Part shown: piece after piece, positions 56,960 through 62,272 of the stretch | Layout: each line of letters starts with the position of its first letter | Position numbering within the stretch: position 1 is the first letter of the stretch | IMG/VR virus record: IMGVR_UViG_3300031857_016023 | Span: 59,822 to 123,821 of that record | Reading direction: 5' to 3' (one strand) | Source of the DNA: a virus | DNA: 64,000 bases | Made by a program: the position numbers and the translations under genes | The notes under the pieces: generated by a model | The model's database searches: none | The model's input: only the letters and a program-made list of their open reading frames with translations | What the model was told of the DNA's origin: nothing

Positions 56960-56979
56960 TACTTCTCCTTAAAAGTTGG

Positions 56980-56999
56980 AGGATGGTCGAAACCATCCT
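56980..56999 (-). terminator. Hairpin / probable terminator
   Basis: Minus strand AGGATGGT-TTCG-ACCATCCT just after the 91-aa gene; the T run is offset by a few bases. Confidence 0.6.
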
Positions 57000-57006
57000 T
57001 TTCCCA

Positions 57007-57282
57007 TCAGGTAGATTTTTTAGTTGTTATTGGTTTATCTACGGTTATGTTGGAAACGAAATTATTCAAAGTTGCTGCTTTAGCAATAACTTCTGATTCG
57101 CTTGGGAATGGTGGAAATCCTGGGTGCTTCGGCGGATCTTCACCTTTGATTTTGGCAGTATCTATTTCTACTTGCCATTGATTGGATATTTGCTCACGTT
57201 TTCCATAATAATCATCATTAAGCATATCTCTCGCCATTTTAAGTAGCTCGAGTCGTATTTCAAAGGGTGTCATATTTGACAT
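57007..57282 (-). CDS. Conserved phage hypothetical protein
   Basis: TPFEIRLELLKMA and KAATLNNFVS; AGGAG RBS; own promoter motif and hairpin. Confidence 0.75.
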   Translation of the reverse strand: MSNMTPFEIRLELLKMARDMLNDDYYGKREQISNQWQVEIDTAKIKGEDPPKHPGFPPFPSESEVIAKAATLNNFVSNITVDKPITTKKST

Positions 57283-57353
57283 AGTAATTCTCCTGTGTGT
57301 TTGTTTGTGTGTTACCAGCGGTTGTGTGTATGCTGGTTACTTATTTAGTAAAT

Positions 57354-57932
57354 TTAATCCCACAATCCTCTATAATACTTACCAAATAAGCGAAAACCAT
57401 TGGCCATTCTAGTTTCGTGTCTTTTTAGGCCTTCTTCATCGTATCCATTGATGAAAAACTGTTCATCTGTATCATTAACCAATTGTTCAAAGGTCCAAAT
57501 CATTTCATTCATTACCCAATCCCAGCGAGCAGAACCTAAATCTTCAAATTGTTTATCCTGGTACCAATCGAAATACAATTGATTGTCATATTCTTCATGT
57601 GTAATGCTACGGAGTTCAACAGGAACATCCTCTAAATCGACAAGATGATACCCATGATTTGTTTCTTTGAGTTGCTTAAGCATTGGCAGAATAATATATG
57701 ACAATGTATGATCCATTGACCAAGTATCCCATTTATCAATCTTTACATAATTAATTCTTGGGTGAACAATTTCTAAAAACTTAAAAAGGGCCTGGCAAAA
57801 TGGTTCTAGTATATTTGCTAGTCTATCAATCTTTGGTTCATCATAATCAATTTCACGCCAAAAGAAAACCTTCTCCAAGATTGTGTAAGGAGAAAGCCAA
57901 TGATTACGGTAATTACTAAGATAAACTTTCAT
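57354..57932 (-). CDS. Conserved phage hypothetical protein
   Basis: KIDKWDTWSMDHTL, RWDWVMNEMIW and GFRLFGKYYRGLWD. Confidence 0.75.
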   Translation of the reverse strand: MKVYLSNYRNHWLSPYTILEKVFFWREIDYDEPKIDRLANILEPFCQALFKFLEIVHPRINYVKIDKWDTWSMDHTLSYIILPMLKQLKETNHGYHLVDLEDVPVELRSITHEEYDNQLYFDWYQDKQFEDLGSARWDWVMNEMIWTFEQLVNDTDEQFFINGYDEEGLKRHETRMANGFRLFGKYYRGLWD

Positions 57933-59115
57933 TATATTTTCCCATAATTAAAACAACATTACTTCCACCAAAAGCAAAAGAGTTATTTAAACACACATCT
58001 TGCTTCTTGTCAACCACTTCTCTAGGCAAATATGTGCCTTCAGGTACTTTATCATCTTGTTCACCTAAATGCCAATTCGGTATGACTTTATCTTCTTGTA
58101 AAACAGCAATACAACCCATCGATTCAATAATACCTGAAGCACCGAGTGTGTGACCATGTAATGCTTTTGTTGATGTGATTGGTATATCTTTCAGTTCATC
58201 ACCAAAAACATTTTTAATAGCTTGCAATTCAACCATATCGCCGGTTGGTGTTGCAGTTCCATGAGCAGAGATAAATGTCACTTTGCGGCCGTTAAGTTTA
58301 TCATAAGCTTTTTGTATCGCTCTCATTTCACCTTCAATACTTGGCTTAGTCATTGATTCTGTACCCCAAGAAGTACCATAACCAAGTATCTCACAATATA
58401 TCTTGGCGCCTCGAGCCTTGGCGTGTTCCAGTTCTTCTAAAAAGAATACAGCACAACCTTCTGCGACAACAACACCAGTTCTATCTTTTGAAAATGGCCT
58501 GCAAGCTTTTGGTCCTTCATCTTTAGAAGAAATAGCTCGCATTCCGTGCCATGTGGTAATACCATAATCATTTACTGACGATTCTGTTCCGCCCACAATC
58601 ATTCCATCACAATCACCACGAACAATCTTTTCATATGCTTCACCAAGAGCAAGTGTTGAAGATGAACAAGCTGTGTTGTAAGTAAAATTTGGTCCATGTA
58701 TATCTTCTTTCAATGCAATAAAGCATGCAGGAGAATTAGGACAAATATTAACCAAGGTATTTGGCCTTGATCGACCATTGTTCAAATATTCTGGAAAAGA
58801 ATTCTCAATTGTATAGCTGCCACAAAAACCAACACCAAAGAAAATGCCATCAACATCTTCTTTTGTTATACCAGCATCTTCTTTACATTTAAGATAAGAA
58901 TACCAAGCAAAGCGTGATATTCTATCGGTGATTGTTTGATCGAGCGGTGCAATCTGTGAATCAATATCAAATTCTACACGACCAAGATTTGCTTTGATGT
59001 TTTCATAATAACGAATGCCTGAGCGGCCAGAAAACATAGCATCTTTTACTTCATCATATGATATACCGATTGGTGTAACACAACCAATCCCGGTCACAAC
59101 TACTCGTCTTTTCAT
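57916..59115 (-). CDS. fabF: Beta-ketoacyl-ACP synthase (FabF/FabB family)
   Basis: RRVVVTGIG; catalytic Cys-His-His in TACSSS, AHGTAT and GHTLGASG; NSFAFGGSN. Confidence 0.93.
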   Translation of the reverse strand: MKRRVVVTGIGCVTPIGISYDEVKDAMFSGRSGIRYYENIKANLGRVEFDIDSQIAPLDQTITDRISRFAWYSYLKCKEDAGITKEDVDGIFFGVGFCGSYTIENSFPEYLNNGRSRPNTLVNICPNSPACFIALKEDIHGPNFTYNTACSSSTLALGEAYEKIVRGDCDGMIVGGTESSVNDYGITTWHGMRAISSKDEGPKACRPFSKDRTGVVVAEGCAVFFLEELEHAKARGAKIYCEILGYGTSWGTESMTKPSIEGEMRAIQKAYDKLNGRKVTFISAHGTATPTGDMVELQAIKNVFGDELKDIPITSTKALHGHTLGASGIIESMGCIAVLQEDKVIPNWHLGEQDDKVPEGTYLPREVVDKKQDVCLNNSFAFGGSNVVLIMGKYNESLS

Positions 59116-59879
59116 TTATCAGTTTTAATTAATCTAATCATTTGAGCAGGAATATCAAACTCCCACCATTTCTCTCTTTGATTCCAGAGATAACCTTTAT
59201 TGTGATGATTGTTATGCCAATCGCCAAAAAATACGCCAGTAATAAAATCATTCCGTGATGAATCTTGCGTTTCGTGATTGCGATATGAAAATGGCAACTT
59301 AGTATGATTGATAATGTTAATCACACAATATTCACAGAACATAAACAAACTAGCAACATTATACATCAATGCTAAACGAATGTCAATCAAAGCTAATACT
59401 ACCCAAAATGCAATAACAATTAAAACATAGTAATTATGTGATCTCATAATCCATGGATCATTATTTAAATTACGCATTACACTTACAGGAACGTGTTTTA
59501 AGTTCCAACGAAAAAATGCCACATTCCAACGACCAACTAAATCTAAATTCGTTGGATCTTTATCCGTATCAGAATACATATGATGCGTTCTGTGTGCCAT
59601 AGCATAACCATACGGAGAACCAGCAGATGCTAGTGGCGAAAACATGGCCATAAAAATATGCCAAAATTTATTTGTTTGAAATGACTTATGTGAAAAATAA
59701 CGGTGTAAAGCTACGTTATGAAAGAAATGGTTAAAGAAGAAAAACATAATAAACGCATACAGAATATAACTATATTGCGCTGTCACCACAAAATAAATTG
59801 AACACAAGATACCAAGAACAACTTGTGTTAAAATAACCTTCTGTGAATTTTCTGAAGTTCCTCTAAACGGATGTGCCAT
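59112..59879 (-). CDS. Membrane-bound fatty-acid desaturase (delta-9-like); start moved to ATG 59879
   Basis: His boxes HRYFSH, HRTHH and HNNHH; several transmembrane segments; KWWEFD. Confidence 0.9.
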   Translation of the reverse strand: MAHPFRGTSENSQKVILTQVVLGILCSIYFVVTAQYSYILYAFIMFFFFNHFFHNVALHRYFSHKSFQTNKFWHIFMAMFSPLASAGSPYGYAMAHRTHHMYSDTDKDPTNLDLVGRWNVAFFRWNLKHVPVSVMRNLNNDPWIMRSHNYYVLIVIAFWVVLALIDIRLALMYNVASLFMFCEYCVINIINHTKLPFSYRNHETQDSSRNDFITGVFFGDWHNNHHNKGYLWNQREKWWEFDIPAQMIRLIKTDK

Positions 59880-59880
59880 A

Positions 59881-60144
59881 TTAAGTGCCTTGTTTTTTGT
59901 TAATTGCTTCCTCAAACATATTAAACAAATCACCAAGTTTTGTTGGAACATTTCCGCCAACATCTTTCACATCAAACATATCTTCAACATCAAAAATGAA
60001 GTTCATAAATTCGATTGAATCTAACTTTTCATTTATTTCAGCAAATTTGTGAACATCAGTATCTTCTGGATAATCAGTCAATTTGATTCCATATTTTGCA
60101 TAGAACAGTTCTTCAATTTTGCTCACTACTTCTTCTCTGGTCAT
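59881..60144 (-). CDS. acpP: Acyl carrier protein
   Basis: Acidic 87-aa protein with LDSIEFMNFIFDVEDMFDV phosphopantetheine-Ser motif; between acpS and the desaturase. Confidence 0.85.
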   Translation of the reverse strand: MTREEVVSKIEELFYAKYGIKLTDYPEDTDVHKFAEINEKLDSIEFMNFIFDVEDMFDVKDVGGNVPTKLGDLFNMFEEAINKKQGT

Positions 60145-60473
60145 TTTCTTTCCTTTTTTAAAGCAACAACTGCTACATAATCGCCTTCATGTGTTAGAGA
60201 AATAACATAATCTCCACTCAACTCATTATGTGTATTTACTGCAATTGGATCTTCAGCAATACATTCTACAGTAGGCGCACAAGCTACTTTAAATACTATC
60301 TTTATTTTTCTAGGATTTATTTGTCGACCTTCAGCTTTAGTTAAAGCTTCATAAATTGCCCATATTTTAGCTGCGGTCTTTGGACTATCTAGTTCATGGC
60401 CTAGTTTTTCACCAAGCCTTTTTAAATCAATATTTTCAAATCTGGATATTCGTGTTAGATCAATACCAAGCAT
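60141..60473 (-). CDS. acpS: Holo-ACP synthase (AcpS-type phosphopantetheinyl transferase)
   Basis: GIDLTRISRF, WAIYEALTKA (canonical form is FAAKEA..KA) and ISLTHEGDY. Confidence 0.82.
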   Translation of the reverse strand: MLGIDLTRISRFENIDLKRLGEKLGHELDSPKTAAKIWAIYEALTKAEGRQINPRKIKIVFKVACAPTVECIAEDPIAVNTHNELSGDYVISLTHEGDYVAVVALKKERK

Positions 60474-60480
60474 AATTAAG

Positions 60481-60500
60481 AAGCGGGATTTCTCCCGCTT
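60481..60500. terminator. Hairpin between the small secreted-protein gene and acpS
   Basis: AAGCGGGA-TTTC-TCCCGCTT; weak T tract on the minus strand. Confidence 0.55.
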
Positions 60501-60506
60501 TCCTTT

Positions 60507-60665
60507 TTACTTCTTTTTTTCGTCTTTCTTCGCTTCAGCTTTTGGTGCATCTTTTTTAGCTTCAGCTTTTGGTGCGTCTTTCTTAGGCTCTTCTTTCTTA
60601 GCAGGTGCCTGTGCGAAAGCGGTTACTGCAAACAGCGATGCTGCGATAAGTGCTACTGACTTCAT
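60507..60665 (-). CDS. Small secreted Lys/Ala/Glu-rich protein (52 aa)
   Basis: Not in ORF track. MKSVALIAASLFAVTAFA-QAPAKKEEPKKDAPKAEAKKDAPKAEAKKDEKKK; AAGGAG RBS; AFA signal peptidase site. Confidence 0.85.
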   Translation of the reverse strand: MKSVALIAASLFAVTAFAQAPAKKEEPKKDAPKAEAKKDAPKAEAKKDEKKK

Positions 60666-60686
60666 AATATCTCCTTAATTAAGAAT

Positions 60687-60990
60687 GGTGATTGATTCTG
60701 TTGCCAAGTTCAATCACCGAAAACTCCGGTCAGCGTTTAGGCTGCCAGTGCAAATCTTTCATCGTTTGCATTTACTTATTTGATTATTACGCCTTATCTG
60801 GCGATTCTCCAATTGTCTATTTGCTACGCTGTCGAATCTATTTCAGGCCCATCAGAAGCATACTGCCTACACCCACTTACGATTGGCGTAACCAGCGGTA
60901 GTGCAAAACCTGCTCATGCGTTCTTACAGTATGCTTTTGGTGGACCTGACCGGTACTGCCCCGGTGTCCAACGCATCGTTCAACAATCTT
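60687..60990 (-). ncRNA. ssrA: Circularly permuted (two-piece) tmRNA gene; outer ends approximate
   Basis: T-arm and CAGGTCC-A-CCA end at 60938; 5' acceptor GGGCCTG...GATTCGAC starts at 60850; G3-U70 pair; tag ANDERFALAA* at 60769-60737. Confidence 0.93.
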
Positions 60991-61001
60991 CAACGAATTC
61001 T

Positions 61002-61316
61002 TTACTTCTTTGCCTTATACGGTTCCATTTTTGTGCCGGCCGCAATAACGCAATAGTTATCTTCATCAACTTTTTCAACCATAGTCCAACTTTTACTCTG
61101 AGGATTCAGAAATAGAAAAGTAGGATTATACTTCTTTCTATTGCCATCAACTCTGTGGCCTGTGGAGGTAAGAAAAGGCAATTCACCATATTCTTTTACT
61201 GTTCCGCTTATCGTTTTTAAATCAACACATAGTGCCTCAAATAAAACAATTTCACTATCACTAGCCATAGCCAACGCAGGAATAAACAATAGGGTTGACA
61301 GAAATTTGGCAAACAT
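61002..61316 (-). CDS. Hypothetical exported protein
   Basis: Signal-peptide-like N-terminus; YGELP and NPQSKSWTMVE...CVIAAG. Confidence 0.65.
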   Translation of the reverse strand: MFAKFLSTLLFIPALAMASDSEIVLFEALCVDLKTISGTVKEYGELPFLTSTGHRVDGNRKKYNPTFLFLNPQSKSWTMVEKVDEDNYCVIAAGTKMEPYKAKK

Positions 61317-61574: not shown

Positions 61575-61594
61575 TTTATGTACCCTTAAATTAT

Positions 61595-62272
61595 TTATAT
61601 TGCACCATTATACTTCAAAATATATTGTTGAAGAGGCAAAATATGATCTGCTTTGTTCTCAATGAAAATCAAAGGTATATTTGTATCTTCTACCGCAATG
61701 GCAACCACGATTTGTTTAATTGGCTTGCCTGTTCTTTCCTCAAACATTTCAGCGTATGCCGAGCATTGCATGAAATAGTTTTGTATATATTCTTTTTCTT
61801 TTACTCTTGTTGAAGTTTTCCAATCAACTATTGATAATTCGCCTTCCCATTCGGCGATACAATCACAACGGCCGGCGATCCCTAGTTTATCACTATACAA
61901 CGGTTGTTCAATACCATATATGTCGCCAATATGACTATCGAGAAATGGTTTCACTTTGAGAAATAGCTCTTTAGTGTCAGGCATCATCGTCTGCATTTTC
62001 ATATCAGACATTTCGTTTAAAAGATATTTCTCAACAGCGTTATGCAGTTTGGTACCACGACCAGATGCTGCACGGGAAATACGATTAGCTTCTTGTTCGC
62101 CAACTCTTTGGTGCCATTCATAGATTGCTTTTTTGTTATAATTGGATAGAACGGTTGTGATGGAGGGGTAGGACTTTCCTCCCGGTGTTTTATAAGTCCT
62201 ACCCGATTCTGTTGTTTCGGATTCTAATTCAAAGTCCAATTCACTTAATTTTACATGATTAAAAAATTTCAT
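61595..62272 (-). CDS. PD-(D/E)XK (Cas4-like) exonuclease
   Basis: YPSITTVL, RGTKLH, AGRCDCIA, IVDWKTS and YFMQCSAYA. Confidence 0.88.
   Translation of the reverse strand: MKFFNHVKLSELDFELESETTESGRTYKTPGGKSYPSITTVLSNYNKKAIYEWHQRVGEQEANRISRAASGRGTKLHNAVEKYLLNEMSDMKMQTMMPDTKELFLKVKPFLDSHIGDIYGIEQPLYSDKLGIAGRCDCIAEWEGELSIVDWKTSTRVKEKEYIQNYFMQCSAYAEMFEERTGKPIKQIVVAIAVEDTNIPLIFIENKADHILPLQQYILKYNGAI

Follow-up and report, generated by a model that had tools for sequence, protein, structure and literature searches.

Here, we describe a cassette of four lipid genes in a stretch of viral DNA of 64,000 nt (hereafter the window), which is the final 64 kb of contig G000, a linear viral metagenome assembly of 123.8 kb (IMG/VR record IMGVR_UViG_3300031857_016023). 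The four genes lie on the minus strand, at 60473-57916, and are predicted to encode, in this order, a trimmed AcpS-type 4′-phosphopantetheinyl transferase (PPTase), a divergent acyl carrier protein (ACP), an integral membrane fatty-acid desaturase of the stearoyl-CoA desaturase (SCD)/Delta9 type and a FabF-like beta-ketoacyl-ACP synthase (KS). We propose, with a probability of roughly 0.55, that these genes form a phage-owned elongation and desaturation module, carried as an insertable block by a clade of freshwater T4-like myoviruses, that feeds the lipids of the host.

The genes are tightly packed. As read from the sequence, the stop codon of the PPTase gene (60141..60473, 110 aa) and the start codon of the ACP gene (59881..60144, 87 aa) overlap in an ATGA at 60144-60141. 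The TAA stop codon of the ACP gene, at 59883-59881, is followed by a single base (59880) and then by the ATG of the desaturase gene at 59879 (59112..59879, 255 aa). In turn, the desaturase stop and the start of the KS gene (57916..59115, 399 aa) share a second ATGA at 59115-59112, and the 3′ end of the KS gene overlaps the following gene, g192 (57932-57354), by 17 nt. The start of the desaturase gene had to be corrected. The mechanical open reading frame (ORF) begins at 59963 and gives 283 aa; we rejected this start and retained 59879 because relatives align from residue 29. The corrected start agrees with the 1-bp gap of the initial annotation, which had been made from the letters alone and had described the genes as coupled by ATGA overlaps or by this gap, and the sequence bears out this description at all three junctions. 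The cassette follows the general orientation of the contig, of which 127 of the 134 ORFs are on the minus strand, and the GC content of positions 58001-60000 is 0.36, compared with 0.28-0.41 in the rest of the window.

The identities initially given to the four genes were upheld by family, profile and fold matches. Moreover, the intact ACP serine, the three desaturase His boxes and the Cys-His-His triad of the KS, all noted at that stage, are present and conserved in our alignments. First, the PPTase is assigned by profile, fold and motifs. Its match to PF01648 (E 8.6e-5, 23 bits) is under the gathering cut-off of 25, and its NCBIfam score (17.5 bits) is under the cut-off of 45.35. The family profile A3, which also takes in one more canonical member from the viral locus L039, matches AcpS 5xuk in the PDB at 4.5e-8 and retrieves over 15 AcpS chains at E≤0.01. 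The AlphaFold2 model has a predicted local distance difference test score (pLDDT) of 90.6, and its top Foldseek matches in the PDB are AcpS chains and the phosphopantetheinyl transferase domains of fungal fatty acid synthase, with 1f80_C as the best one (template modelling score, TM, 0.75; E 8.9e-6). The AcpS motifs GIDL (with D5), xEAxxKA and SxxHE are kept; among 14 aligned sequences, E42 and K46 are invariant and S92, H95 and E96 are found in at least 90%. We take the roles of these motif residues in Mg and CoA binding to be those of Bacillus subtilis AcpS. By our reading, the phage protein is devoid of a helical insert that both its L039 homologue (ILTESEKAELKKS) and the aligned AcpS chains have. 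An exhaustive phmmer search among 1.84 billion sequences retrieved 13 representative clusters at E≤1e-3, all metagenomic, 11 of which are proteins of 81-110 aa. Altogether, the PPTase is predicted to be a trimmed and very rare AcpS. In BFVD, nothing matched its model at E≤0.001, the best hit being a Megaviridae protein of the PPTase superfamily at 1.9e-3. We also noted there a weak fold match (E 0.34, TM 0.53) to M4QPY7, annotated as a PPTase-domain protein of the cultured Prochlorococcus phage MED4-213.

The 87-aa protein is predicted to be an acyl carrier protein, with Ser43, within LDSIEF, as the predicted phosphopantetheine attachment site. No Pfam family matched it at E≤0.01, and its score against NCBIfam PRK12449 (26.8 bits) is under the cut-off of 70. 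The clade profile A4, built from the carriers of the window clade and of distant phages only, retrieves ACPs in 15 of its 15 PDB matches, the best being 2n50 at 4.9e-9 with the serine aligned. All 25 aligned carrier proteins have D42 and S43. The protein has an isoelectric point of 4.37 and partly conserved helix II residues. Its relatives form 31 clusters, all metagenomic, and a precomputed Pfam domain is attached to none of them.

The desaturase is supported by its family match to PF00487 (E 4.2e-10; 40.3 bits, over the cut-off of 29.7), by its His boxes and by its fold; it scores 42.2 bits against the NCBIfam DesA family, under the cut-off of 400. Searched against the PDB, profile A1 retrieves mouse SCD1 (4ymk) at 3.6e-25, mouse and human SCD1 both standing at about 1e-25. 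In agreement with this, human and mouse SCD1 (4zyo and 4ymk) are the top Foldseek matches of the AlphaFold2 model (pLDDT 95.5), with TM values of 0.76-0.77; AlkB comes next, far lower. The boxes are HRYFSH (59-64), HRTHH (96-100) and HNNHH (222-226), to which H192 is added, and none of 29 desaturase sequences departs from the eight box histidines or from H192. Thus, sequence and fold predict an SCD/Delta9-type enzyme, whose regiospecificity and substrate head group stand as predictions.

Finally, the KS matches PF00109 (1.8e-37) and PF02801 (9.1e-27), both over their cut-offs, and PDB FabF 5sxo at 3.4e-76. Cys150, His285, His322, Lys317 and the NSFAFGG gate (Phe380/382) align with those of 5sxo. 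The score against TIGR03150 fabF (330.3 bits) is under the equivalog cut-off of 493.75, and that against the FabB model is 244 bits for a cut-off of 630. The protein is therefore best described as a predicted FabF-like KS and not as a FabF equivalog. Its identity is at least 45% inside a metagenome clade and drops to at most 41% for FabFs. This clade is recovered in the KS tree, a quick maximum-likelihood reconstruction without bootstraps on 39 hand-picked rows. These are the 14 clade clusters less the fragment P0129, eight phage KS from the loci described below, 16 of the other FabF-like matches listed and, in addition, Escherichia coli FabB (L097) and a secondary KS of Salmonella (L098). The window clade and the KS of loci L021-L025 and L088 group in one clade of 18 rows, made of phage and metagenome sequences, with a Shimodaira-Hasegawa-like approximate likelihood ratio (SH-aLRT) support of 100 and a stem length of 0.92. 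Neither the cellular FabFs sampled nor E. coli FabB nor the KS of L039, L052 and L072 fall in this clade; the latter three are long branches of unsure placement, and the tree designates no donor.

The four proteins were also compared with 50,697 phage records. By tblastn, the desaturase gave three weak matches (27%), and the ACP and the PPTase gave none. The KS matched 29 records, all below 60%, the best near-full-length match being at 36.9%; these phage-labelled matches look like bacterial FabF/FabB genes. In the same records, blastn of the whole region found no match, and in PHROGs no match was found for the PPTase, the ACP or the KS.

The contig that carries the cassette is predicted to belong to an uncultured freshwater T4-like myovirus. 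It encodes a gp32 (Pfam E 2.3e-45) that is about equally near to cyanomyoviruses (57% identity) and to the Pelagibacter phage HTVC008M (55%), and it holds a T4-like replication gene set, assigned from the N-termini in the ORF list only, without a search. Its completeness is estimated at about 69% (CheckV). Beyond the fact that it is a linear metagenome contig of this completeness, nothing was found in favour of an assembly artefact, or of host DNA acquired recently and without a function. We consider such an origin extremely improbable. Indeed, 16 public DNA runs contain at least 83% of the sampled words of a 5-kb stretch that includes the block and both flanks. When four possible source samples are excluded, 12 runs from 8 studies are left (one of these studies, P1, also includes possible source runs), in which block and flanks assemble independently. 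These runs are labelled as freshwater, except for four labelled ‘fungus metagenome’. Two freshwater runs from two other studies, X6 and X8, are the ones that were aligned contig by contig. With 0-1 differences, contigs of X6 extend over 56979-58853 and 59663-60698 and bridge both junctions of the block; the block is covered by X8 contigs too. As independent freshwater assemblies cover the block and bridge its junctions near-identically, we rejected the chimera that the initial annotation had named as a way to be proven wrong. The second such way, a near-identical host locus, was not encountered either: the closest cellular desaturase found is at about 29% and the closest FabF at no more than 41%. 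In addition, the GC content of the block is inside the range of the window, and the gene order is kept in a complete relative.

This relative was found by scanning IMG/VR with the KS, which gave seven loci: five at 99-100%, one at 90% and one at 81%. The last one lies on G001, a contig of 171.7 kb with a CheckV completeness of 100%, where the four genes have the identical order and occupy the same slot (locus L006). The four proteins are 70-81% identical to their G001 counterparts, and the ratios of non-synonymous to synonymous substitution rates (dN/dS) are 0.16 for the PPTase, 0.12 for the ACP, 0.08 for the desaturase and 0.11 for the KS; these values are rough, because the dS between window and L006 is 1.3-2.0 and close to saturation. 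All four genes thus appear to be under purifying selection. The flanks are less kept, with 67% identity for a PD-(D/E)XK nuclease and 48% for a cell-wall hydrolase. Order, identities and dN/dS are not what an artefact or functionless DNA would show.

The boundaries of the insertion were determined by comparison with relatives devoid of it. The block of 2590 nt (2.59 kb), at 57915..60504, is missing from a close relative: in an X17 contig, whose pieces resemble the flanks at 90-95%, 57914 is connected to 60505 by 63 other letters. X17 is an RNA library with a marine label and may contain DNA. Likewise, in the IMG/VR contig L183, which is without the block, the g192 homologue comes immediately after a small Lys-rich gene. 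The surrounding backbone consists of the PD-(D/E)XK nuclease, then g192, g91 and the cell-wall hydrolase. The g192 gene (57354-57932, minus strand) belongs to phrog_11543, a family of unknown function, and lies outside the block, apart from the overlap mentioned above. In viral contigs, 438 relatives of g192 were confirmed, and g91 and the cell-wall hydrolase come after it in nearly every case. Among the best 80 of these 438 loci, 39 had more than 2.7 kb upstream and could be surveyed for the slot. Three of these 39 have the block, each with an identity of 89% or more to the window, and 36 do not. The spacing from the nuclease to g192 is 3664-3671 nt in the three loci with the block, compared with 296-2350 nt in 34 loci without it. 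The block is thus accessory and occupies, as an island, a variable slot in a backbone that is conserved. As expected of a phage auxiliary metabolic gene island, it is surrounded by phage genes, some relatives have it and others do not, and its nearest kin are viral.

We then looked at the wider family. In viral contigs, desaturases of this family, of about 250 aa, are very common, with at least 512 confirmed stretches. A census by hidden Markov models (HMM) was made on the best 80 of them, with up to 5 kb fetched on each side. A nearby ACP was found in 14 of the 80 loci, a KS in 12 and a mini-PPTase in four. When the desaturase is at least 39% identical to that of the window, an ACP is nearby in 11 of 15 loci, as opposed to 3 of 65 below 39%, these rows not being phylogenetically independent. 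The order ACP-desaturase-KS recurs in loci L021-L025 and L088, on contigs of 22-364 kb, at identities of 29-34% for the ACP, 39-41% for the desaturase and 41-46% for the KS; in these loci, as in L006, the ACP gene adjoins a desaturase gene. A search for the four-gene order and the building of phylogenies had been suggested at the outset. The full order was found in G001, and the distant loci hold only the trio, without the PPTase. Indeed, no PPTase was found in the three records of distant phages with the trio (82%, 85% and 18% complete). As the PPTase is missing from these phages, the phage activator seems non-essential and host enzymes may serve the carrier.

Several viral loci of the census are more elaborate. 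L088 holds an ACP, three desaturases and a KS; L017 holds three desaturases, a PPTase and an ACP; L039 holds seven desaturases, a KS-like gene and a more canonical AcpS that was missed by the HMM; and L052 holds a KS followed by five desaturases. Arrays of four to seven divergent SCD-type desaturases within single loci were seen in L039, L052, L038, L027/L028, L034 and L086. In L072 (1936-6873, on a 40-kb viral contig), two desaturases and a KS stand beside a 566-aa ORF with a GGGAAG dinucleotide-binding start, read from its N-terminus as a putative halogenase-like protein dependent on flavin adenine dinucleotide (FAD).

In cells, the picture is different. One genome per species was scanned for 185,579 species, giving 93 confirmed relatives of the desaturase, the best 80 of which were analysed. 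They are about 22-29% identical to the phage protein, with one short segment at 44%. Within up to 5 kb per side, an ACP or a PPTase was found beside none of these 80 genes, and a KS beside two. All four cassette genes are thus predicted to represent virus-specific lineages, for which no close cellular source was found.

The cassette does not make up a complete pathway of type II fatty acid synthesis (FASII). On the 123.8 kb of G000, which is about 69% complete, no match was found to PF00698 (FabD), PF07977 (FabA/Z) or PF00501 (AMP-binding ligase). In both G000 and the complete G001, no match was found to PF01553 (PlsC-type acyltransferase), PF03061 (4HBT) or PF00975 (type-II thioesterase). FabD was not found in G001-G004 either, and none of the five records has a Fer2 ferredoxin over the cut-off. 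The only signal of a short-chain dehydrogenase/reductase (SDR) in G000 is one weak, sub-cut-off match of PF13561 (14.7 bits) in a 342-aa open frame (336-aa ORF MNIFITGAAGGIGS), outside the window and far from the block, which we take to be a sugar-epimerase-type SDR. These contig-wide searches extend the initial remark that FabD, FabG, FabZ, FabI, an acyl ligase and a thioesterase are lacking in the window. Since no other FASII gene was found, the module depends on the FASII of the host, as had also been proposed. It is predicted to have no entry, reduction, electron-supply or exit step of its own.

From these elements, we can propose the following mode of action. First, the mini-AcpS would turn the phage apo-ACP into its holo form. 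The FabF-like KS would condense an acyl thioester with malonyl-ACP, lengthening the chain by two carbons. In E. coli, FabF performs the step that extends palmitoleate (C16:1) to cis-vaccenate (C18:1). The SCD-type desaturase, a membrane di-iron enzyme dependent on O2, would add a cis double bond, probably of the Delta9 type, to a saturated chain. The net effect would be more longer and unsaturated acyl chains during infection, through a C16:1 to C18:1 kind of step, and these chains would be handed back to host lipid synthesis. FabD, FabG, FabZ and FabI, the electron donor and the acyltransferases that place the product in membrane lipids would be borrowed from the host; host enzymes are needed for entry, reduction and exit because phage equivalents were not detected. 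We infer the chain length, the double-bond position, the choice between acyl-ACP and acyl-lipid substrates and every biochemical step of this scheme.

Several observations weigh against the proposed module. The PPTase, ACP and KS scores are all under curated equivalog or gathering cut-offs. The block is accessory, since 36 of the 39 relatives surveyed do without it, and the activator is absent from the distant phages with the trio. The RNA-library contigs that lie on the flanks come only from a relative without the block. Over the block itself, RNA runs gave no or very low cover for most of its length in X17 and none in X18; this cover says nothing on expression, because both are contigs and the X17 pieces are only 90-95% alike. 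In the viral census, an ACP is not nearby in 66 of the 80 loci, a KS is not nearby in 68, and 38 have two to seven desaturase ORFs in tandem. Moreover, G001 carries a second, lone desaturase between ribonucleotide-reductase genes. Finally, cyanophage DesC-like viral fatty acid desaturases (vFADs) desaturate C16 lipid chains in yeast without a phage carrier (Roitman et al. 2017, PMC5776448). Viral desaturases without a carrier, the lone desaturase of G001 and these yeast data favour a lipid substrate.

The second desaturase of G001 (L020, 4117-8176) lies amid NrdA, a 276-aa ORF, a thioredoxin-like ORF and NrdB, all named from their translations, and a 410-aa putative isocitrate-lyase-like ORF comes after this region. 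L018 is syntenic over this region; in G000, a counterpart is missing. As G000 is 69% complete, the phage of the window may carry a second desaturase in its missing part.

The same observations lead to a simpler explanation, in which the genes are plain helpers of membrane fluidity: the desaturase would act on host phospholipids or acyl thioesters, as the cyanophage vFADs do on lipids, the KS and ACP would add capacity to host FASII, and the desaturase would not use the carrier to hold its substrate. The many viral desaturases without a nearby ACP, the lone one of G001 and the vFAD activity on C16 lipids are all in line with it. So are the published interpretation of viral desaturases, of which one virus can have five copies, as genes of fluidity under cold or salt (Zhong et al. 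2020, PMC7300359), and the fact that a ligase (in G000), a thioesterase and an acyltransferase of the phage's own were not found. We regard this explanation as possible, if doubtful, because it leaves several features without a reason: a divergent private ACP kept under purifying selection at a 1-bp gap from the desaturase, an ACP-desaturase-KS order that survives at 29-46% identity, and a clade that added its own activator.

These features bear on the substrate of the desaturase. The tight coupling and the conserved order would favour a carrier-bound substrate. A complex prediction for the desaturase (A1) and the phage ACP (A4) gave a median score of 0.16, for a mark of 0.32, in a run without controls; this value weighs neither for nor against such a substrate. 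That the desaturase acts on chains held by the phage ACP and forms with the KS a virus-owned acyl-ACP pathway, whose product is not an ordinary membrane fatty acid, seems unlikely to us. If it were true, the cassette would be the simplest member of a wide and undescribed class of phage biosynthetic clusters, made of a carrier, one to seven desaturases, a KS and sometimes a halogenase-like gene, and producing unusual unsaturated lipids or signals.

Another proposal is that of a specialised lipid or secondary product: the chain would stay on the phage ACP, be desaturated there in a JamB/Ttu-like manner and be lengthened by the KS. This might yield an unusual unsaturated or 3-oxo acyl compound, such as a signal, a toxin against competitors or grazers, or an envelope modifier. 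A private carrier with its activator and KS fits the logic of dedicated ACP/KS pairs such as NodF/NodE. Loci L088, L017, L039 and L072 look like biosynthetic clusters, and no close cellular counterpart of the cassette was found. Opposed to this are the single desaturase of the window, ordinary and SCD-like by sequence and fold, the failure to find a loading ligase (in G000) or a thioesterase (in G000 and G001), and the lack of a tailoring enzyme. We therefore judge a specialised product quite unlikely and retain an elongation and desaturation module that feeds host lipids as the preferred explanation.

It was also suggested in the initial annotation that the phage ACP might replace or decoy host ACP. 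In such a scheme, the ACP, with or without the KS, would sequester FASII enzymes or acyl chains of the host. The divergence of the phage ACP from cellular ACPs, its acidity and its partly conserved helix II residues are compatible with such interference. However, a decoy requires neither a PPTase nor an intact Ser43, nor does it require a catalytically complete KS and desaturase under purifying selection in the same operon. With only the divergence and acidity of the ACP pointing to it, the decoy was not borne out, and we find it very improbable.

The surroundings of the block hold additional elements. A GC-rich hairpin with an 8-bp stem and a GAAA loop (60481..60500, minus strand), terminator-like on both strands, lies inside the block and precedes the PPTase start by 7 nt; it may act as terminator for the unit of transfer-messenger RNA (tmRNA) and small gene located upstream. 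A 52-aa ORF (60507-60665, minus strand), with a signal-peptide-like start and a repeat tail rich in Lys, Ala, Pro and Glu, separates the tmRNA from the block. Close relatives have retained it, as has the cassette-less L183, and an X18 RNA-library contig covers it with a deletion of one 12-nt repeat unit. Just upstream of the block, Rfam detects a permuted (two-piece) tmRNA on the minus strand (60737-60998; wider limits 60657-61036), with 114 bits for tmRNA_permuted (cut-off 47) and 87.7 bits for beta_tmRNA (cut-off 84); ARAGORN reported no tRNA or tmRNA in the window. The depth over the tmRNA stretch in the DNA runs X6 and X8 is 5-8 times that of the flanks, and other contigs either diverge from this stretch or leave out 42 nt (60782-60825). 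A near-identical tmRNA is therefore shared by other organisms or phages abundant in those waters, and the shared sequence is a possible clue to the host.

As for promoters, sigma-70-like sites show no excess (21, for 18.5 in shuffled sequences), and NTAAATA sites near the block are unremarkable. The motif TATAAATA, the T4 late-promoter core, is found once in the window (61592-61599, minus strand) for a shuffle mean of 10.2. As TATAAATA is depleted and not enriched, the late promoters of this phage probably differ from those of T4.

Phage desaturases are now read as lone membrane-fluidity genes. A phage with its own carrier, activator and KS would steer chain length and unsaturation, beyond the editing of finished lipids. 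If the carrier proved to be the substrate handle of the desaturase, the cassette would represent the first case of acyl-ACP desaturation in a virus; its four genes would make a compact tool to produce unsaturated chains in bacteria, and it would open the way to the multi-desaturase clusters, which are numerous in large uncultured phages. If it only tops up host FASII, it would be an ordinary, though elaborate, helper-gene island. The presence or absence of the block among close relatives provides a natural experiment.

Dedicated ACPs encoded beside a FabF/FabB-like KS are known from NodF/NodE of rhizobia and from AcpXL and its dedicated ketosynthases, where an unusual chain is made via the FASII of the host cell. 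These systems differ from the cassette in that they are cellular, have no membrane desaturase and no private PPTase, and obtain unsaturation from the elongation cycle. The phage KS and PPTase share folds and catalytic residues with bacterial FabF (5sxo) and AcpS (1f80), the KS being 34-41% identical to FabFs. In JamA-JamB-JamC, TtuA-B-C and the bacterial polyyne clusters, the genes of a membrane desaturase and of a small carrier are neighbours, and the enzyme works on the chain that the carrier holds; an acyl-ACP synthetase or ligase is required, usually together with a thioesterase, and no KS takes part. The cassette resembles them by its desaturase gene placed beside a carrier gene, at a 1-bp gap. 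It differs from them in that a PF00501 ligase was not found in G000, nor thioesterases in G000 and G001, and in that its desaturase is SCD-like.

Among phages, an operon with ACP, AcpS, desaturase and KS was not described in the literature searched, which excludes subscription journals and supplements. The initial statement that no characterised phage operon of this kind is known holds within these limits; part of the gene content was already in print. Indeed, Zaragoza-Solas et al. (2020, mSystems, PMC7029224) listed ‘fabF, stearoyl-CoA desaturase’ as unique lipid-biosynthesis genes of the freshwater pelagimyophages PMP-D (‘fonsimyophages’), which are also uncultured freshwater T4-like phages. 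The likeness extends to the gene names, and the gp32 of the window is 55% identical to that of the Pelagibacter phage HTVC008M. The main text of that paper devotes one sentence to these genes, with no carrier, activator, operon coupling, virus-specific clades or insertion slot. Viral desaturases as helper genes are thus known. The insertion boundaries, the cassette-less relatives and the check by independent assemblies are new, as are the fold test of the mini-AcpS, the finding that FabD and the exit enzymes are missing in a complete relative and that no close cellular desaturase is carrier-linked. The vFADs of cyanophages and of cryopeg and sea-ice viruses are likewise phage-borne membrane desaturases of the Delta9/SCD type with three His boxes; they are lone genes or arrays read as fluidity genes, and the available text of these papers mentions no ACP, PPTase or KS with them (PMC5776448, PMC7300359). 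Unlike them, the desaturase gene described here lies between those of a private ACP and a KS, in translational coupling with both.

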